From the NCBI GenBank assembly GCA_000004985.1, contig GG738906.1: a stretch of 64,000 nt of DNA. The stretch is one strand, 5' to 3'. The stretch is from Naegleria gruberi (lineage: Eukaryota). A program made the translations under genes and the position numbers. The notes under the pieces are model-generated. The model did not search any database. It had not been told where the DNA came from and saw nothing but the letters and a program-made list of their open reading frames with translations. Position 1 is the stretch's first letter. Every line of letters starts with the position of its first letter. Below are positions 15,285-64,000 of the stretch, in pieces.

Positions 15285-15577
15285 GACGATGAAATTTTTT
15301 TTTCAATTTAAATGTTGATAACAAGGTAAAGTTTTGCAACTTCGAAAAAGTTGATGATGATTGTTGTGCACATGAAATACTTTCTTATTTACATTGAAAA
15401 TTTTGGCTGTTATTTGTTTGGCAACATAGCCATGGCAGAGTGCTTGATGATATTGAAAGGAAATATTGTGCAACAAGACAAAAATAGGTTTGTAAACTTT
15501 TGTGTTGGGAAACAAAAAATTAACGACTTGTTTGATTGGTTGGGCTTGTTTGTGGCAGACACAAATCAAAAAAAAAT

Positions 15578-17081
15578 ATGAGTGTGTTAGACCTGCTTGG
15601 TGATGAAATCAACAATGCAGACGGAGAGGAGGTAAGTACCTCTGTCTCCAATATTATAGGGGAGCAAGGCAGTACAAACATCGTTTCCACAACTTCATCT
15701 TTGGCCACATCATCTACTCCACAACAATCATCTTCTGGTAATAGTACCACCATCCAACGACCTCCCTCCACCACTGCTAGCACCACTAAACCTTGGGGAA
15801 GATTAGTACTGGTAAGCACCGGATGTTCTGATATTCCAAAAGAATTCTTCCTCTCCGAAGATGTTATTAATATTGGCAGAATGCAAACCAACAATGTGAG
15901 AATTTTTTCGAAACAACAATCCAAATTTGTTTCAAGAAACCATGCCCAAATTAAAAAAATCAATGCTTTCACTTTTGAAATCGAAGATAAAGGGAGCATG
16001 AACGGTACACTGGTGAACGGCAAAAAGATTCAAACCTCCAAATTAAAGTAAGTACTACTTTTAATTCTCAATAATAACTATGCGCAGACATGGAGACTTG
16101 ATTATTATTACTGGAGGACCAACAGCCAATGTCAATGATTACATTACAGTTAATGACAAGAGGAGAGAAATGTTTCAAAACGAACAAGATTGGAAATATG
16201 AACTCACTACCCAACTCAAACAAGCCTTTATCTATAGATTTGAACTTTTAGATCAGAATGCTATAATGAAAAGTTTAAGCTCTGTTATCTCAGAGCCTGT
16301 TTCAAAACAAGAAGAAAAATCTGTAGAGAATATTAGTCGAGATATTTCTATAACACAAACACAAAAACCACTTCCAGATAATAAGAGAAAGATTGACGAC
16401 ACTGATTTAGCAACTAGTGAAACTGGAAAGAAATTTAAAGCACTTTCTGATTCTTGCACAAGCGAACTCACTTGTTGTATTTGTTATAATCTTTTCGTGG
16501 AACCAACAGTTCTTGAATGTGGTCATAATTTTTGTAAACGTTGCTTGTATGAATGGCTAGCAAAGAATCACTCTTGTCCACTATGTAGAAAGAAGCTATC
16601 AAAGGGGTCATACCCTAACAGATCTATAGAAACTATTCTAAATTCTTACGTTCAACATGTTTCCTGTACTGACGAACAAAAGCTAAGAGAAGACAGAATT
16701 AAACTCATTCAACAGAAATTCGATGAAGATTTAGCTAAATTACACGGAATGATTGAGAATGCCAAGGCTAAAAAGATTAAATTTTTAAATATTAAGGACA
16801 GATGGAAACTAGAAGAAAAGAGAACCTTCAAGAATGGTGTAAAACAGTACTTTGGAAAATGCAGAGAAGATTTTTGTAATTTAGTTGGTATGACTGAAAA
16901 TTTTGTCAATAATTGCACCAACGAGGAATTAATAATTGCATGTGATAATTTGGAAATACCTGTTGCTTACATGATTGTTGGACAAGAAATTAAAACAATG
17001 AGGCGAGTTGTTGACTTTGATCAGACTAGACAAAGATTGTTGAACTTTTGGAATGCTGCAGATAATTTATTTTTCATTTAA
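15578..17081 (+). CDS. FHA-domain + RING-finger E3 ubiquitin ligase (CHFR/RNF8/Dma1-like). Exons 15578..16047 and 16088..17081; 40-nt intron 16048..16087 (GTAAGT...GCGCAG).
   Basis: FHA signature GRLVLVS...GR...VSRNHAQI...DKGSMNGTLVNGKKI in ORF 15536..16051. C3HC4 RING CCICYNLFVEPTVLECGHNFCKRCLYEW...CPLCR in ORF 16080..17081. The splice is phase-2 and yields ...QTSKLK|HGDLIIITGG. ATG at 15578 follows an A-run. Confidence 0.7.
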
Positions 17082-22713: not shown

Positions 22714-22726
22714 ATGGCGGGAAAAC
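22714..22726. promoter_or_regulatory. E2F-like site TGGCGGGAAAA (reverse complement TTTTCCCGCCA), about 30 nt upstream of the condensin CAP-H start codon, in a 282-nt divergent intergenic region.
   Basis: Matches the E2F consensus TTTSSCGC/TTTCCCGCC. It is a rare GC-rich element in an otherwise about 85% AT spacer. Confidence 0.35.
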
Positions 22727-46897: not shown

Positions 46898-47397
46898 AAT
46901 TGTTGAATTAAAGTGTTGATGATAAAGGTGAATTTTGTGGTTTCAAAAAATGTCAAGAGCTGTCACACACCAACAATTTTTGACAACACGGTTTTATGGT
47001 GTGGTAATGGTGCCCTTTTTTTTTTAATTGTTTTAATTTCCTCAAAACGACATTAGACGGATTTGAAAAGAATTAACGACATGAGAAATTTAAGGTAACG
47101 AAGAATAAATTTATTAACTTGTCACATATTACCTGAATGGTATTGTAATTGATGGTTGTGAGTTAAATAGTAGTAAAAACTCATTGTTACCATTTAATTC
47201 TCAAGTGCCAATCTAACATAAGTATCATATCTCTTAGATCTAATGGACTCATTTCTGTTCAATTGATCTCTTAAGAGATCGAGAATTAAAAAAAGAATAT
47301 CCATCCTTGCCTCACAGGGGTTGTCAGACGATTGGTGTTTTTCTTGTTGTTTGGTGTGTCTAATGAGGAGAGATAGACCTGAATATTGTTGAGTGAA

Positions 47398-48410
47398 TTA
47401 ATTTAGTCTAACTAATAACTTACAGTCATTCAAAATACTTTCAAGATCACATCTATTGCTTATTAAAGCTATAAGGAATTTGAGAAATGATTTACAAGTG
47501 TTAAGATCGGGAAAATGTTGTTTTGCATGCTTTCTCTTTTTCAATGGAGGTTGGATTTGAGCTTGATTGTTATTTTGAATGAAAATTGTTACAGACCTCC
47601 ACAATAACTGCTTTTTCAATGTTTGAACAGTTTCGATCAATGATGAGTACACTAAGTTTTCCTCCGATATTGCATCGAAAATTGTTTCAATGAGTGTTTC
47701 TAATCTTCTTCTTGAAATAGGAGAGAAAATTGTTTCAGCTGTAAATCTGGCCTCAATACACAAGGCTAAATATTCTAATTTGATTTGAGAAGTTTTACAA
47801 TTTTCAACAATACTTGTTACAATTTTCAATATACTAGAATCAGCTTGTTCCATTATTTCCTCTGATGATTTAAAGTATGAATCAAATACAAGTCTCATCA
47901 CAAAATCCTTATCAAAATCAGGATTAATGAAATTTTCCAAAACCAACTCTGATAACAATTTAATGTCGAATTGAGGAAAATAGAAAGGAAGATTTAAAAT
48001 ATGTACAAGAAGAGTACATGTAATCTTTCCCATATTTTCAAATAATACAACATGATCATATCTGCAATAAAATCGAATTAGGTTCTCTATTGTAAAATAA
48101 ATAAATACCTAAATTCTTGAGGAGGATGTCTAGTAATTTCAACAAGATACATCAAAATTTTGATTATATAATCATTGATATTCAAGTCTTTTCTGTTCGA
48201 ATAGTTGCACAACATTTCAAATACAGCCTCATCTTGTATTCCTTTCAATAAGAAAGTGATAATTTCCTCCAAAGAATCATAATTAATGTTTCCATTTTCA
48301 ATCATATCTTTTAATATTGAATGTATTGTTTTAAAACATTGATTCATTTCAGTGAACTTATTTGCATCCCTAGCTTGTAAAATTTCCAAAGCCTTTTTGA
48401 TTGACTCCAT
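47398..48410 (-). CDS. Hypothetical alpha-helical protein (about 329 aa). Exons 48109..48410 and 47398..48061; 47-nt intron 48062..48108 (GTATTT...TTGCAG).
   Basis: ORF 48087..48410 ends ...HPPQEF then the donor AG|GTATTT (phase 2). The acceptor restores the frame of ORF 47398..48033 (R-YDHVVLFENMGKITCTLL...). Confidence 0.55.
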
Positions 48411-48447
48411 CTTGTTTAATAATTAATATTTTTTTTTGTTTTAAAAA

Positions 48448-49416
48448 ATGTCAGCAACAAGAGAAACTAGCAACATCACACAACAAGCATCATCAGCTAA
48501 TAATAGTAGTAGTAGTAAGGAGGGTGTTGTTAAATATCCAAACAAGTACACTACGGATCCAATTAATTTAAATGATTTTTATTCGTCATTACATTTCTCG
48601 GAGGAAACATTAACACAAGAACAAAGAGACATTTATAAGGAGATGGAAATTTTTGACTATTGCAATCAACAAGCAATTAAAATTGTTGGAGATCCAAAGG
48701 TTGGTCAAGCACATTATATTGAAAGATTATGCTCTATGAAATACTTGAAAGGTTCTTCTTGCTTGGATAAATACGTCTCTTTTAATGCCGAAGAAACACC
48801 AGGAAGACTAAACTCATCAACAAAGGATTACGCCCAATTTTATTATAATTTAATGCACTGTCAGGAACGAGATGAAGATTCAAGTGCCAAGTATAAAGTA
48901 TTATTAGAAGAAAGAGAAGATTTCTCAAATGTCAAATCGCACCAATTGAAAGATGTATTTCCAATTATTCATGATAATTTACTTTTGAAAAATAGTGATT
49001 CCTTAAAGGAAATTTTTTCTAAAATTGATCCTAATAGCGAAGATCGTTCAAAACAACTTTTTGAACATTTAACCAATAGAACTGCATTGCCTCAATATGA
49101 AAATTTGAGGAAATGTGCCAAGGAACGATATGTTAAATCTGTTCATGACGATGATACTTTTGGATTAAACCAAAATAATGTCAACGAACTAGCTCATAAG
49201 TGTTTTGTTCCTTATTTTGAATTTTTCACAAGGATTGGAACTGTCCTTTGTAGAAGGCAAATTGAAAACTGCTTGGCTCTTGGTTTGAAGAAACAACGTA
49301 CAACTGTTCCAGAGGCCAATGTTTTCTACCTTAACACATGCTTTTCAGATGATTCACTCGTGGCTGATTGTATGAAATATACAGAGAAGTATTTTATTGA
49401 TAAGTTAGAAGAATAA
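48448..49416 (+). CDS. Hypothetical protein, 322 aa, single exon. Its ATG is only 37 nt from the divergent ATG of the preceding gene.
   Basis: Long ORF with typical codon usage; no motif recognised. Confidence 0.5.
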   Translation: MSATRETSNITQQASSANNSSSSKEGVVKYPNKYTTDPINLNDFYSSLHFSEETLTQEQRDIYKEMEIFDYCNQQAIKIVGDPKVGQAHYIERLCSMKYLKGSSCLDKYVSFNAEETPGRLNSSTKDYAQFYYNLMHCQERDEDSSAKYKVLLEEREDFSNVKSHQLKDVFPIIHDNLLLKNSDSLKEIFSKIDPNSEDRSKQLFEHLTNRTALPQYENLRKCAKERYVKSVHDDDTFGLNQNNVNELAHKCFVPYFEFFTRIGTVLCRRQIENCLALGLKKQRTTVPEANVFYLNTCFSDDSLVADCMKYTEKYFIDKLEE

Positions 49417-49594
49417 ATACTTGTCGATTCATAATATCATTGATACAGTTGTTATTTTCAAAGTTTGGTTTAATATAATCATTTATGGCAAGAATTTCAA
49501 AATATGATCTATTTGTGTCTAATGGAATGAACGTGACTTGCATGAGTTCTCTAATTCAAGCAAAAATATTTTTGTTTCAATTAAAAAGGCTCTA

Positions 49595-59113: not shown

Positions 59114-59245
59114 TAGATAAGTTCGGAACTAGTGGGCTGCTGTTGTTTTTGGCTTGAGCCACATTAATCATCAAATCTATTTATTTTTTTGGTGTTGGTT
59201 TGTACTTGAAAATGGCGGGATAGTTTGTAGTGGGTAAAGGATCCA

Positions 59246-62200
59246 TCAATATTTGCTAGAATAATTTGTAAATGGCTCTACAATCTCATATTCCTCTTCA
59301 AAGGTCTTTTCTTCTGTTGGTTGTGTGGCCGAGTCATTATTGATAATAGTAAGAGCCTTTTCGATTTCCTTAAACCAGTCCAAGCATTCTTCTTTGGTCT
59401 CACAAATAAAGCCAAGCGGAATTCGTTTAGATGGGGTATTAATGATGAGTGTAAACTGGCGTTCTCCTTTATACTTATCATTAATACTCCATTTTTCTTT
59501 TTCTTCCTTATCTGCTATACTTTGGTCTATTTCAATTGGAGGAAAATCTCTTCCAGGAGATAATTGGTCCATTTCGAACGCAGCTTCATCAGTACCCATT
59601 ACAACAGAGGCACCCTTCAAAGGATAGAGGTTGAATCTGGAGACTAGTTTCTGTACAAAGTTTGTTTCCTTAATTATAACAACGTCACTCATTAAATAAA
59701 CTTGGACATAAAGTTCTGTAAATCTAAGTTCTAAAAGGTCTTCAATTGTTTTGTTTTTTACAGCATCCCAATAAGGTGTAACTTGTCCTCTTATTTCAGA
59801 TATAGTTCCCTTATTATACAGCTTGTTCATTACATCTTTCTTAAAGTTGTTGATGCCCTTGTTTTGACCTAGAATCAATCTACCCTCTTTCAAAAAGAAT
59901 CTACCTGGCTTGAGTAAGGATTCGTTCATCTTTAGTTTTTTTTCAATTTCCAATACCTTATATTTGTTATTAATTCTATAAATGTATTCCTCTTGCTCTT
60001 GTACTATATGTCTAAGTTCTCTTACAACAATTCTAAGGTTTTTAAAATCTGGATGAGAATCTGGTGTATATCTCAATATCTTTTGTAAAAACTTTAGGTA
60101 AATGAATAATCTAGTTACAGGAAGAAGAAGGTATGCATCATAGATATGTCCACTACAAATTGGTAACCTCTTTCTTAGTTTGATATACTTGTCAAATTCT
60201 TCATTTGTTTTTCTCAGTTTGTTTAATACTGCTGCTGCATTTTCGTAAACACTTGGATACTTAACATATAATTGTCTAAATTCTTCCAAACGAGTTTCGA
60301 AAACTTTTGAAATTTCTATGGAATCCTCATTTTTCATAGATCGTGCTTGTGTCAGTGGTAAAAGCTTTGATTTGAGGTCAATATATAATCCTCTAGCATT
60401 TCCTATTATGTCTAGAATAACTGAAGGAAGTACACAATCTCTCTCTGAATTTGAAATATTGAATTCATTTCTATTCTTACAAATATCAAGTAAAGGTTCG
60501 AAAAGTATATCATTAAATACATTCATATGGCTTATATATTCTGTTTCACTATTTAATAATTGCAATAGTAAAACTTGTCGGTTAGGTATGTTCTTTTGAT
60601 ATTGTTCATTGATTTTCTTAATTTCTGGGCTATCTTCTTCGCCTAAACTCTCACTAACACCTCCTCCAAATAGATAATTGGTAGCTTTTACAGACTTTCT
60701 TCTATTTTTTGATTTAATACGCAAATCTTCCTCAGTGTTCAATTTGGAAAGTATAAGGGAAGTTGTATAGTAGAATAAATCATTATCATTGTACTTGAAA
60801 TATTTCAACTTCTTAAGTTGTCTTATATCGTCAGGAACCTCTCTAAGTTCATTTCCTGAAATATTCAGATCCGTTAACGTATTTTTAAGTAGTGATATAT
60901 CATTAGGGAAAATAAGAAGTGAATTTCCACTGAGGTCCAATGTTAAAATATTTGGAAGCTTGAGAATACATCCCGGTACATATTCAAAATTATTGTTACT
61001 TAAATCTAATTCTTTTAACTTTTTCATTTCACAAAAGTTTTCAGGTAATTCATAAAGATAATTATATGGTAAAAATAAATAAGTCAATGACTTTAAAGTA
61101 GTTGCAAACCAGGTAGGTATGGAAGATATGTAGTTATTCGAAATATCCAGAAGTGTAATATTTCCTCCTTCCACGAGGGATTGTATAGGAACTTGTGAGA
61201 GTATGTTGTATCGAAAGTAAACAGCTTGTGTTTTAGAACTTATTGGGGTTGGATTGTGATTTTGTCTGAATGCTCCTTCCCTATCAGTTATTCCATCAAA
61301 TATTTGTTTAAGATTTTTGTGAACAGCAATAGGTTGGTCAATAGAGTGAGACTCAGCTGCCAGCTGTTTGTAATCTAAATCTCCAGAACTTGGTCTCCTA
61401 GATTCCTTATTTGCCTCCTCATTTGCAGTCTCAGATTCCCCATAGTTTACTATCTGTGTTTCTGTGTCAGAATCAGATTCACTATCAGAATAATTTATAC
61501 TATCAGTTGCTGTGCTATCAAAGTCATCTACATTTGCTGTCAAGTTGCCATAACTGATGGATAATCTTTTCCAAGTATTTTTACCTCCATCTATTAAATC
61601 ATTGTCAGAATTTTTAAATTCTGATTTTTCAGTCTTTGCCACTTCTGGAATCGTATCTAATTTTTCTTCTTCTACTGGTTGCTTCAATTCTTTATACATT
61701 TCTCTTAATTCTTTAGTATCCGTAATATCATACTTATTTTTGTTAATATACATTCTTTGCTTTTTTTGTTCCTTCTTATTTGTTTTATATTGTTTTAATG
61801 CTCTTGGTACAGTTGATGTGTTGATTGAGTTTACAAATTCGTATGGTCTGGGCACTGAATAATGATCATCATCAGTTTGGTTGACTGAATCAGTGGTATC
61901 AAAATCTTTCCTGATTGATCTTCTCGGATTACCAAAAGGACCGTTCCTCATTTCTAATGTTTCAAAATCCAATTCATCTATTTGTGTACTAATTTCAAAT
62001 CTTACTTTTTTTCTGGAAAGATTGGATGAGCTGGTATTATTTTTGAGCATGTTGAAATTATAGGTTTGTTGTGATTTGGATGCTTGTGTTTTAGAAGGGT
62101 GAGATATGTTTGTGTTGTAAGACTCATCTAAAAGTTGTACCAAATTTAAAAATGTAATAATGTTCGTTTTAAATGTAATGACTATCGATTGAAGAGCGTA

Positions 62201-62464
62201 TTGAAGTGGCTTGATGAGTGTTGGACATATTATGAGTATTGCTGCAATTATTAAACAAAGAATAACGATATCCGAAGCTATTCGCCCAAAAAATGTTAAT
62301 ATCAAGTACGGAAAGTTTGAAGTATTTGGTGTTGTGGTATTCGCTGAAGTGATTATTTCGGAAATGTTCTCAGAGAGAACCGAAATTACTTGTGTCAGTT
62401 TTTCTTGATGATCATCAAGAGGTGTTGATGAAGTGATATTAAAATAGTTGGCTTGACCATCCAT
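59246..62464 (-). CDS. Membrane-anchored LRR-containing Rho guanine-nucleotide exchange factor (N-terminal TM segment(s), LRR block, DH-PH tandem), 1072 aa, single exon.
   Basis: Hydrophobic N-terminus YLILTFFGRIASDIVILCLIIAAILIICPTLI. LRRs (LTLLDISNNYISSIP, LKELDLSNNNFEYVP, LTLDLSGNSLLIFP, LTDLNISGNELREVP). DH domain (RQVLLLQLLNSETEYISHMNVFNDILFEPL...) followed by a PH-like region (...RFFLKEGRLILGQ...). Confidence 0.75.
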   Translation of the reverse strand: MDGQANYFNITSSTPLDDHQEKLTQVISVLSENISEIITSANTTTPNTSNFPYLILTFFGRIASDIVILCLIIAAILIICPTLIKPLQYALQSIVITFKTNIITFLNLVQLLDESYNTNISHPSKTQASKSQQTYNFNMLKNNTSSSNLSRKKVRFEISTQIDELDFETLEMRNGPFGNPRRSIRKDFDTTDSVNQTDDDHYSVPRPYEFVNSINTSTVPRALKQYKTNKKEQKKQRMYINKNKYDITDTKELREMYKELKQPVEEEKLDTIPEVAKTEKSEFKNSDNDLIDGGKNTWKRLSISYGNLTANVDDFDSTATDSINYSDSESDSDTETQIVNYGESETANEEANKESRRPSSGDLDYKQLAAESHSIDQPIAVHKNLKQIFDGITDREGAFRQNHNPTPISSKTQAVYFRYNILSQVPIQSLVEGGNITLLDISNNYISSIPTWFATTLKSLTYLFLPYNYLYELPENFCEMKKLKELDLSNNNFEYVPGCILKLPNILTLDLSGNSLLIFPNDISLLKNTLTDLNISGNELREVPDDIRQLKKLKYFKYNDNDLFYYTTSLILSKLNTEEDLRIKSKNRRKSVKATNYLFGGGVSESLGEEDSPEIKKINEQYQKNIPNRQVLLLQLLNSETEYISHMNVFNDILFEPLLDICKNRNEFNISNSERDCVLPSVILDIIGNARGLYIDLKSKLLPLTQARSMKNEDSIEISKVFETRLEEFRQLYVKYPSVYENAAAVLNKLRKTNEEFDKYIKLRKRLPICSGHIYDAYLLLPVTRLFIYLKFLQKILRYTPDSHPDFKNLRIVVRELRHIVQEQEEYIYRINNKYKVLEIEKKLKMNESLLKPGRFFLKEGRLILGQNKGINNFKKDVMNKLYNKGTISEIRGQVTPYWDAVKNKTIEDLLELRFTELYVQVYLMSDVVIIKETNFVQKLVSRFNLYPLKGASVVMGTDEAAFEMDQLSPGRDFPPIEIDQSIADKEEKEKWSINDKYKGERQFTLIINTPSKRIPLGFICETKEECLDWFKEIEKALTIINNDSATQPTEEKTFEEEYEIVEPFTNYSSKY

Positions 62465-62496
62465 TTTTTTAAAGTATTTTTAGGTAACTTCAAGAG

Positions 62497-62527
62497 GAAT
62501 CCCGCCAATTTTAACAACCGCGCCATA
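62497..62527. promoter_or_regulatory. Two E2F-like GC-rich elements (aaTCCCGCCaat at 62498..62509 and aaCCGCGCCat at 62516..62526) plus an overlapping CCAAT in the 87-nt divergent spacer between the RhoGEF and MCM2 start codons.
   Basis: TCCCGCC/GGCGGGA and CCGCGCC/GGCGCGG match the E2F core TTTSSCGC. These are the only CG-containing stretches in this spacer. Confidence 0.35.
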
Positions 62528-62551
62528 AATTTAAAAAAAATAAACCAAAAA

Positions 62552-64000
62552 ATGAATCCGCCAGAAGATGTTGAAACACAAGAGTACGAAGAGGAAATTC
62601 CATTTGATGAAGAGGAGGAGGAAGGTGAAGATTTATTTGCGGATGACGTATTAGAGGAGGACTATACAAAAGGACCAACAGAAGAAGACTTTTATGATGA
62701 GCAATATATTGACAATACTACATACCATCCTATGAGCTATCATGATCGTTTGAACGTTGAAAATTTAATGAATTCTAGAGATGAAGAAGAAGAGGATGAA
62801 ATAGATCAAGCCATTAGACGGAGTGAAAACAAACGTAAGAGTTTGCCTTCTTCCGATGATGCAATTCTACATTTATTGGGAGATGACAATACAGATGAAT
62901 CTCATTCCTTTGAAGAGGACGAAGAAGATGATGGACAAACTTCGTTTGATGAGATTTTTACAGGTGACATTAGAGAAAAAATTGCTATGGAGAGAACAAG
63001 AGCTCTCATATTAAAGGGTTTTAGAAGGTTTTTCACAGAGGAAAAAAGAGAAGTTTATATGGAAGCCATCAAACATGCTGTAGCTAATAATAAGAAATCG
63101 ATAGTTGTCAATTTCACTGATCTTTCAGTTGCTCCTCATCTACTTTTATTATTGACAGATTTACCTGATGCTACCATTGAATTAATGGAAGAAGCTGTAA
63201 ATAGAATTGTAGAATTACAATATCCGAATTATGTGGGAGATGATTTTCATATCAGAATCAAAAACTTGCCAACTGTGGAATCAATTCGTGATTTGAGACA
63301 TTCCAGTTTAAATCAGTTGATATCTGTAAGAGGAGTAGTGACAAGAAGAACTGCCATGTTTCCTCAACTTAAATTTGTAAAGTATGATTGTGTTAAATGT
63401 GGAGAAAGCTTGAGTCCAATAATAGTGAGAAATGCATCAGATGTTTCTAAACCTTCTAGCTGTCCTGGTTGTGCTGGAAAAAACTGTTTCATTATTAATG
63501 AAGCTAAAACTATTTATTCTAATTACCAAAAGATAACAATTCAAGAGCCTCCTGGAACAGTTCCAGCAGGTAGAATACCAAGATCCAAAGATGTGATTCT
63601 TGTTGATGACTTGATTGATTGCACCAGACCTGGAGAGGAAGTTATTGTCACAGGAGTTTATAAACAAAATTATGATGCATTCCTCAATGTGAAACAAGGA
63701 TTCCCAGTGTTTGCCACAATAATAGAAGCCAACTATGTGGAGAAAATATTCGACAAACGAAGTGAAGCCATCACCAAAGAAGATGAAAGAAAGATTCAAC
63801 AATTAGCAAAAAATCCACATATTCAGGAAAAGATTATCAAATCAATAGCACCTTCAATTTTTGGACATGAAGATATTAAGAAGGGTATAGCTTTATCTTT
63901 ATTTGGAGGTGTAAGAAGAGTATCTGAAGAACATACTACAAGAGGTGATATCAATGTTTTACTATTAGGTGATCCAGGTACAGCAAAATCTCAAATCCTT
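62552..64000 (+). CDS. MCM2: DNA replication licensing factor MCM2, N-terminal about 483 aa; 3'-truncated by the window edge. No intron within the window.
   Basis: Acidic histone-binding-type N-terminus, the RRF-type motif ...ILKGFRRFF..., a C4 zinc finger (CVKCG...CPGCAG) and OB-fold region. The MCM box begins with ...GDINVLLLGDPGTAKSQIL (Walker A) at the window edge. The ATG at 62552 follows an A-rich leader. The frame is open to position 64000. Confidence 0.85.
   Translation, partial: MNPPEDVETQEYEEEIPFDEEEEEGEDLFADDVLEEDYTKGPTEEDFYDEQYIDNTTYHPMSYHDRLNVENLMNSRDEEEEDEIDQAIRRSENKRKSLPSSDDAILHLLGDDNTDESHSFEEDEEDDGQTSFDEIFTGDIREKIAMERTRALILKGFRRFFTEEKREVYMEAIKHAVANNKKSIVVNFTDLSVAPHLLLLLTDLPDATIELMEEAVNRIVELQYPNYVGDDFHIRIKNLPTVESIRDLRHSSLNQLISVRGVVTRRTAMFPQLKFVKYDCVKCGESLSPIIVRNASDVSKPSSCPGCAGKNCFIINEAKTIYSNYQKITIQEPPGTVPAGRIPRSKDVILVDDLIDCTRPGEEVIVTGVYKQNYDAFLNVKQGFPVFATIIEANYVEKIFDKRSEAITKEDERKIQQLAKNPHIQEKIIKSIAPSIFGHEDIKKGIALSLFGGVRRVSEEHTTRGDINVLLLGDPGTAKSQIL

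Follow-up and report, generated by a model that had tools for sequence, protein, structure and literature searches.

The 37 nt between the start codons of two divergent genes of Naegleria gruberi (contig GG738906.1 of assembly GCA_000004985.1) appear to be a true promoter region, contracted to an extreme degree and placed between two head-to-head genes that are themselves real and intact, and we put the probability of this reading at roughly 0.58. In its best form, the reading would consist of a minimal A/T core promoter shared by both genes, very short leaders, and regulatory DNA spilling into the coding sequence of the neighbour. The two genes are called here the minus gene and the plus gene after the strand on which they lie, and the window is the whole stretch of 64,000 nt that was analysed (33% G+C, with genes dense on both strands and short GT-AG introns). 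The earlier note on this DNA had placed the two ATGs 37 nt apart and had described the DNA between them as almost pure A/T. Both statements hold: the coordinates are exact to the base (minus CAT at 48408-48410, plus ATG at 48448), and 34 of the 37 positions are A or T (92%). The same is true of the second pair that it named, a leucine-rich repeat (LRR) and RhoGEF gene (ATG 62464, minus) and MCM2 (ATG 62552, plus), with 87 nt between the start codons. In structure, both pairs qualify as bidirectional promoters, since their protein-coding genes point away from each other on the two strands and their 5' ends are less than 1 kb apart. About nine divergent ATG-to-ATG gaps are found in the window, namely 37, 87, 209, 213, 282, 293, and ~414 nt together with two larger, less certain ones, and these two pairs have the smallest of them. 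Since most divergent gaps in the window measure 200-400 nt, the 37-nt gap is a local extreme and not the rule. A true ATG located further downstream was looked for in all four genes and was found in none of them; taken together, homology, reading-frame limits, and codon usage support all four start codons as predicted. The coordinates of the features are collected in Table 1.

Table 1. Features of the two divergent gene pairs, in positions of the window.
Feature	Position	Strand	Sequence	Remarks
Minus gene, exon 3	47194..47378	-		stop TAA 47194-47196 included
Minus gene, intron 2	47379..47423	-	GTAAGT...TTCAG	45 nt
Minus gene, exon 2	47424..48061	-		
Minus gene, intron 1	48062..48108	-	GTATTT...TTGCAG	47 nt
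Minus gene, exon 1	48109..48410	-		ATG 48410-48408
Conserved element upstream of the plus-gene ATG	48393..48404	+	CTTTTTGATTGA	43 nt before ATG 48448
Spacer between the divergent start codons	48411..48447	both	CTTGTTTAATAATTAATATTTTTTTTTGTTTTAAAAA	37 nt, 92% A+T
Putative TATA-like element of the plus gene (by analogy with Giardia)	48415..48428		TTTAATAATTAATA	about -20 to -33 of ATG 48448; adjoins minus ATG
Minus-gene A9 tract	48429..48437	-		-19 to -27 of minus ATG; T9 on the plus strand
Plus-gene A-tract	48439..48447	+	TTTTAAAAA	adjoins ATG 48448; signature form ttttaaaaaATG
Candidate TATA-like element for the minus gene	48439..48447	+	TTTTAAAAA	
Plus gene	48448..49416	+		322 aa, XP_002671319.1 / NAEGRDRAFT_52959
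LRR and RhoGEF gene	59246..62464	-		1072 aa; ATG 62464 preceded by TTTAAAAAA; A-tract tttaaaaaaATG
RhoGEF/MCM2 spacer	62465..62551			87 nt, 72% A+T
E2F-like site	62500..62507	+	TCCCGCCA	sense, 45-52 nt upstream of MCM2 ATG
Second GC box	62518..62524	+	CCGCGCC	28-34 nt upstream of MCM2 ATG
MCM2 start-proximal A-tract	62530..62540	+	TTTAAAAAAAA	tttaaaaaaaa at -12 to -22, plus ccaaaaaATG
MCM2	62552..64000	+		N-terminal 482 aa; gene continues past the window end

The plus gene fixes one side of the spacer. Its product is 100% identical over 322 aa to a predicted N. gruberi protein (286-kb scaffold), which identifies the window as nuclear DNA of this free-living heterolobosean amoeba. For the plus gene, no start other than ATG 48448 is possible: the frame opens one codon before this ATG, and the following in-frame ATG is codon 65. 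All six of the six orthologues begin with MS, and an invariant block, YP.K..D.I.LNDFYSS, follows from residue 30. A profile search over 1.84 billion representatives returned two clusters only, and the gene is therefore assigned to an orphan family, known only from Naegleria-type heteroloboseans. No Pfam domain was found in the protein, its AlphaFold model (pLDDT 39) is unusable, an exact-protein look-up on public contigs gave no match, and a scan of JGI metagenomes for more relatives found none. The order of a RhoGAP/MORN gene, the minus gene, and the plus gene is syntenic in five other Naegleria-clade genomes, and the divergent minus/plus pair is found in each of them (L001, L002, L003, L005, and L006). 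It is missing in the outgroup L007 (GCA_041937235.1), where the plus gene stands in tandem with the orthologue of the minus gene. The orthologous gap measures 230 nt in N. lovaniensis (annotated), 276-344 nt in N. fowleri, and 143-154 nt in three relatives known from metagenome or Logan assemblies. With gaps of ~143-344 nt in five genomes, the shortening to 37 nt is thus confined to the lineage of N. gruberi. The minus-gene orthologues used in this comparison were built by hand from the syntenic loci, and their overall identity is low (20-27%).

A MAFFT alignment of the spacers was uninformative except for one block, TTGATTGA. In the form (T)TTTGATTGA(A), it is located 4-46 nt before the plus-gene ATG in seven of seven species, L007 included; by chance, TTTGATTGA would turn up in 60 nt of a single strand with a probability of 0.3%. 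The element belongs to the plus gene because it is kept in L007 despite the different upstream neighbour and the tandem layout. In N. gruberi, the element CTTTTTGATTGA covers precisely the minus-gene codons 3-6, TCA ATC AAA AAG (S I K K). Given these four amino acids, the probability of TCAATCAAAAAG is 0.9% under local codon usage, and the rare isoleucine codon ATC (13% of Ile codons) is used. The position of the element inside minus codons 3-6 means that at least regulatory DNA overlaps coding sequence, and the 12 bp provide an example, open to testing, of one sequence put to two uses in a compacted genome. TTGATTGA does not qualify as a general promoter motif: the 8-mer occurs 18 times window-wide against 12 expected. 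It is not enriched, so its role rests on the positional conservation at one gene and on the gene of arginyl-tRNA synthetase, ArgRS. At the ArgRS gene, the same motif adjoins the start codon (TTGATTGAAAAAATG).

The other side of the spacer is set by the start codon of the minus gene. ATG 48410 is the first ATG in the frame of minus exon 1 and would therefore be used if it is transcribed, and from the sequence it is quite probable that the gene starts there. The alternative that survives best, which we regard as unlikely, is initiation at the second in-frame ATG (Met22, 48347). This would widen the untranslated gap to 100 nt and place the TTGATTGA element in the minus 5' UTR or promoter instead of coding sequence. 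This possibility draws on the weak conservation of the N-terminus, with a BLAST comparison to the outgroup orthologue aligning from residue 16 only, on the frame before Met22, which at just 25 codons might be open by chance, and on the conserved element of the plus gene, which sits in the disputed codons. However, the codons in question look like coding sequence. When scored with a codon table from 16 other genes in the window, codons 1-21 reach 0.251 per codon, compared to a mean of 0.271 for in-frame 21-codon chunks, and this score is attained by only 0.3% of the chunks read out of frame and by 1.7% of 63-mers from intergenic DNA. Residues 2-12 (ESIKKALEILQ) align, in a six-species alignment, on an N-terminal helix conserved across all orthologues; the orthologues of other species carry 6-24 extra N-terminal residues. 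The L007 orthologue (E = 2e-14) starts with MEVKKIVLKIE, so that the protein start ME.KK is shared, and it has in common with the minus gene the sequence acaagATGGAG and an A8-9 tract ~20 nt upstream.

Such A-tracts are not restricted to this locus. The 23 curated start codons in the window were surveyed on the sense strand over 40 nt upstream, and an A-run of at least 6 within those 40 nt was found at 13 of them, against a background of 3.9%, while T-runs were found at 3/23. At positions -5 to -1, A makes up 71%. The heptamer TAAAAAA is present in 10/23 upstream regions, with 0.46 expected, and TTTAAAA and TTGAAAA are enriched as well. The signature can be written as sense-strand TT[T/G]A5-9, not more than 40 nt from the ATG and often adjoining it, e.g., tttaaaaaaATG. 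It is repeated at 14/26 starts in related loci, and most start codons of Naegleria bear it. All four genes discussed here, the plus and minus genes, RhoGEF, and MCM2, carry it. In the minus gene, TTATTAAACAAG directly precedes the ATG, and the proximal region (an A8-11 tract, then ..acaa[ga]ATGGA) is common to N. gruberi, L007, and N. fowleri; with 30 nt, this conserved region fits wholly inside the 37-nt spacer. The A-tract could be a mere translation-context preference within longer leaders. The TT[T/G]A5-9 rule could help to correct start-codon calls in the error-prone annotations of Naegleria.

How two genes might be transcribed from so little DNA can be proposed from the arrangement of these elements. 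The A-tracts adjoin the ATGs, so they are not TATA boxes at the canonical -30 spacing for their own gene. It is more likely that they form an initiation zone or leader, with transcription starting in or next to them and leaders of a few nt to ~45 nt. The spacer contains two A/T blocks ~25 bp apart centre to centre, each 20-35 nt upstream of the opposite ATG. In Giardia lamblia, AT-rich TATA-like and Inr-like elements ~30 bp apart seem interchangeable, and promoters are bidirectional (PMC1885649, Teodorovic et al. 2007). By analogy, each A/T block of the N. gruberi spacer may be initiator-like for the adjacent gene and TATA-like for the opposite one. The location of TTGATTGA not more than 50 nt from the ATG, at a variable distance, suggests that the element coincides with the start site of the plus gene or immediately precedes it. 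If this is so, the plus mRNA would begin inside or beside the first codons of the minus gene, and its overlap with the minus 5' end could reach a few tens of nt. In 37 bp, there is no room for two Pol II pre-initiation complexes side by side. The genes must therefore either initiate by turns or have 5' ends that run past each other. The fullest version of this proposal assumes an A-tract initiator and near-leaderless mRNAs throughout the N. gruberi genome, with the locus acting as a reciprocal TATA/Inr promoter. Selection would keep the plus-gene element within codons 3-6 of its neighbour by way of a rare Ile codon, 12 bp would serve as coding and cis-regulatory DNA at once, and the mRNAs would cross. 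We put it forward tentatively and regard it, on balance, as less likely than not. If it were true, a Giardia-like solution would have evolved independently in a free-living discoban. The literature searched contained nothing usable on start sites, 5' UTRs, or core promoters of Naegleria, and core promoters and 5'-leader lengths are essentially undescribed for both Naegleria and Heterolobosea.

The arrangement might also be explained without a shared promoter. The two mRNAs would then overlap substantially, each promoter would be located inside the other gene, and the genes would affect each other by interference or antisense regulation. The conserved element of the plus gene does fall within minus coding sequence, and the lack of room for two pre-initiation complexes points in the same direction. 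Overlap of transcription units is also unavoidable elsewhere in the window. The stop-to-ATG gaps of tandem genes are 28, 99, 104, 112, and 132 nt, and the stop-to-stop gaps of convergent genes are 0, 7, 34, 37, and 41 nt. The published median of the N. gruberi 3' UTR is 39 nt, with cleavage 15-20 nt past AAUAAA (PMC11529991). With gaps as tight as these and 3' UTRs of this length, overlap of transcription units and of signals must be routine in N. gruberi. The 37-nt gap is not even the tightest junction in the window: ATG 9906 of ArgRS, which is required because the next Met falls inside the ArgRS N-terminal domain, is only 28 nt past the stop of the preceding giant ORF. The AATAAA of that ORF is located within the same 28 nt. 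The gap between the minus and plus genes is, in this respect, an extreme instance of the general compactness of the N. gruberi genome. Nevertheless, promoters lying wholly inside the opposite genes seem rather unlikely. Both genes have a sense A-tract inside the spacer, placed as it is at uncrowded genes, the 30 nt proximal to the minus gene that are conserved with the outgroup are wholly within the spacer, and no conserved element of the minus gene was found in the plus coding sequence. Of the explanations offered in the earlier note, the minimal promoter and the head-to-head overlap are thus both viable, and a blend of the two is favoured.

The earlier note had the minus gene end at 47398, which is wrong, as a second intron leads to a third exon with a stop codon, TAA, at 47194-47196. 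The three exons encode an orphan heterolobosean protein of 374 aa. The C-terminal exon, which follows LLNDG, is present in two relatives (L001 and L003) too, and exon 3 matches the C-terminal exon of N. lovaniensis. When the protein was searched among 5.8 billion sequences, both in the 321-aa two-exon version and in the 374-aa version, no match was obtained, not even to itself. The public annotation of N. gruberi thus appears to lack this gene, and with no such protein in the public collection it counts as a predicted gene. This absence, together with an upstream region more than 100 nt shorter than in relatives, would agree with a minus gene that is decaying or silent, its promoter deleted and the 37 nt serving the plus gene alone. 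We consider this very unlikely. The frame of 374 codons is intact over three exons, each with coding-type codon usage, the two introns have canonical GT-AG borders and keep the frame, and the conserved proximal A-tract is retained. Moreover, the v1 gene models of N. gruberi are known to miss genes and needed correction (bioRxiv 10.64898/2026.08.18.745565).

The third explanation of the earlier note, in which the 5' ends arise from a spliced leader or by removal of a 5'-UTR intron (an upstream non-coding exon) and the promoters are far off, finds some encouragement in the position of Naegleria within Discoba, whose euglenozoan branch performs spliced-leader trans-splicing, and in the CAAG right before the minus ATG, but it is most improbable: the plus strand of the spacer contains no AG and hence cannot supply a 3' splice acceptor, the sole AG of the minus strand is preceded by A-rich and not pyrimidine-rich sequence, the coding strand switches every 1-4 genes across the window with no long same-strand clusters, gene-specific conserved elements and E2F-like sites stand directly beside the ATGs, and Heterolobosea are reported to have ~2 genes per directon, no polycistronic architecture, and abundant promoter motifs unlike Euglenozoa (bioRxiv 10.64898/2026.07.29.740908). 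An Rfam scan of the 64-kb window returned no family, hence no spliced-leader RNA, and a tRNA scan was empty.

If the spacer is taken as a contracted promoter region of two genes, it can be compared with known systems. It has in common with Giardia the short intergenic DNA, an A/T element at the ATG, and a second one upstream (~30 bp in Giardia, ~25 bp in N. gruberi). Leaders in Giardia are ~3-25 nt, and a head-to-head example there, ran/phd, has 153 bp compared to the 37 bp in N. gruberi. In contrast to Giardia, the N. gruberi signature, known here from sequence alone, is a strand-specific A-run, TT[T/G]A5-9, and not mere AT-richness. Naegleria is also a free-living discoban, unrelated to diplomonads. 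A likewise compact case is that of Encephalitozoon cuniculi, with 5' UTRs below 7 nt, an ATG-proximal motif useful for start calling, and overlapping transcription units (PMC2803860). However, microsporidian and nucleomorph genomes are 2-3 Mb in size, belong to a parasite or an endosymbiont, and use a CCC-like motif, whereas N. gruberi is free-living. Its genome is reportedly ~41 Mb. Similar to bidirectional promoters of yeast and mammals, the pair is divergent and has been kept across five Naegleria-clade genomes. In yeast and mammals, the start sites are ~100-200 bp or more apart, on either side of a nucleosome-free region with room for two separate pre-initiation complexes. Mammalian bidirectional promoters are CpG-rich, whereas the A+T content of the N. 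gruberi spacer is that given above. Very short bidirectional regions and overlapping transcription units have been described repeatedly from other compact protist genomes, so the finding agrees with what is already understood. What sets the locus apart is how small the spacer is, its contraction in a single lineage, the A-tract rule that holds across the genus, and the 12 bp with two uses. The locus is also a natural minimal construct, of 37 bp or of ~100 bp with flanks, that could serve the rudimentary transfection vectors of Naegleria.

The 87-nt spacer between RhoGEF and MCM2 represents a less extreme version of the same organization, with one A-tract per gene and, between them, two E2F-type GC boxes oriented for MCM2. 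Both start codons are supported. RhoGEF has no second Met before codon 139, and its codons 1-138 resemble coding sequence. In MCM2, whose domains are MCM2_N, MCM_N, MCM_OB, and MCM, the Pfam match to MCM2_N begins with residue 12 in protein and profile alike. When homologues of the MCM2 N-terminus were searched for, the matches listed included MCM2s from fungi, plants, and other groups, and none from Naegleria was among them. Read from RhoGEF to MCM2, the order in the spacer is TTTAAAAAA of RhoGEF, 26 nt, TCCCGCCA, 10 nt, CCGCGCC, 5 nt, TTTAAAAAAAA, AAACCAAAAA, and the MCM2 ATG. The E2F consensus quoted in PMC4862756, TTTSSCGC/GCGSSAAA, is matched by TCCCGCCA, whose reverse complement is TGGCGGGA; E2F, DP, and Rb families are reported in Excavata. 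Three copies of TCCCGCCA are found in the window compared to 0.16 expected, a small sample, and all of them are 5' intergenic and in sense orientation. They precede MCM2, condensin subunit 2 (Cnd2; 32 nt from ATG 22683), and an LRR-IQ gene. As in E2F-regulated MCM promoters of animals and plants, the site, here a predicted one only, is ~50 nt from the MCM2 ATG. A difference from those promoters is that the third copy precedes the LRR-IQ gene, a gene with no assigned role. Judged by these motifs, the 87-nt spacer looks like an ordinary compact regulated promoter with specific sites serving MCM2.

The minus-strand gene of the pair whose start codons lie 37 nt apart extends over 47194-48410 in three exons and encodes a product of 374 aa. 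Its 3' end had been placed at 47398 in the earlier note; this position falls in intron 2. Since the product has no match in the public protein collection, not even to itself, the N. gruberi annotation apparently lacks this gene. The arrangement of its divergent partner, the plus-strand gene NAEGRDRAFT_52959, differs in GCA_041937235.1, a heterolobosean more distant than the other relatives (JBEGDK010000021.1; 5001-9217 of locus L007), where the orthologues of the plus gene and minus gene, separated by a 69-nt gap, and the RhoGAP/MORN gene are all encoded on the same strand. Relative to the Naegleria arrangement, the plus gene was thus inverted in L007, or vice versa. Despite the changed arrangement, the plus-gene orthologue retains the upstream element TTTTTGATTGAAAAAA.

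ATG 16080 is probably internal to a plus-strand gene at 15578-17081; a GTAAGT...GCGCAG intron, with splicing read from the sequence only, lies just upstream of it and appears to fuse ORF 15536-16051 (first ATG 15578) with ORF 16065-17081; the divergent gap to ATG 15284 would then be 293 nt. In two contigs of relatives, L003 (1577-1606) and L002, from N. fowleri (4324-4392), the starts assigned by automatic gene calling are probably wrong. For the L003 plus gene, the second ATG (1604, MSTQ) is the most likely start, because use of the first would place the conserved upstream element within the coding sequence. In N. fowleri, the start of the minus gene may lie in a mini-exon of 23 nt whose ATG ends at 4392 and which has an A11 tract in front of it. 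A sense-strand TT[T/G]A5-9 tract is located within 40 nt of the start codon, often directly adjoining it, in 13 of the 23 window genes and in 14/26 genes of the relatives L001-L007, and could provide a start-codon calling rule in Naegleria annotation.

The E2F-like 8-mer TCCCGCCA is present in three copies in the window versus 0.16 expected, and each of them is sense-oriented and located in 5' intergenic DNA. This pattern suggests a putative conserved E2F-type cell-cycle regulon in Naegleria.

Positions of short motifs and convergent stop codons in the window
Feature	Position	Orientation or spacing	Context
E2F-like 8-mer	62500-62507	sense (TCCCGCCAWTTT)	upstream of MCM2
E2F-like 8-mer	22715-22722	sense (TCCCGCCAWTTT)	upstream of condensin subunit 2 (Cnd2), ATG 22683
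E2F-like 8-mer	59213-59220	sense (TCCCGCCAWTTT)	upstream of LRR-IQ gene, ATG 59113
AATAAA of giant upstream ORF	9880-9885		inside 28-nt gap before ArgRS
TTGATTGAAAAA motif	9894-9905		inside 28-nt gap, adjoining ArgRS ATG 9906
Convergent stop codons	17081/17082	0 nt	
Convergent stop codons	11884/11892	7 nt	
Convergent stop codons	36769/36804	34 nt	
Convergent stop codons	19991/20029	37 nt	
Convergent stop codons	44562/44604	41 nt	

A junction tighter than the 37-nt divergent pair is found at 9875-9908, where only 28 nt separate the stop codon of a giant ORF of >2300 aa (9875-9877) from the ATG of arginyl-tRNA synthetase (ArgRS). So short a gap implies that the ArgRS promoter would lie within the upstream coding sequence. 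At convergent genes, stop-to-stop gaps of 0-41 nt, considered together with the published median N. gruberi 3' UTR of 39 nt (PMC11529991), mean that the 3' ends must overlap tail-to-tail. The plus-gene stop TAA (49414-49416) is embedded in AATAAA (49412-49417), an instance of the "dual-use" stop/poly(A) signals that have been described for 11-13% of N. gruberi genes (PMC11529991).
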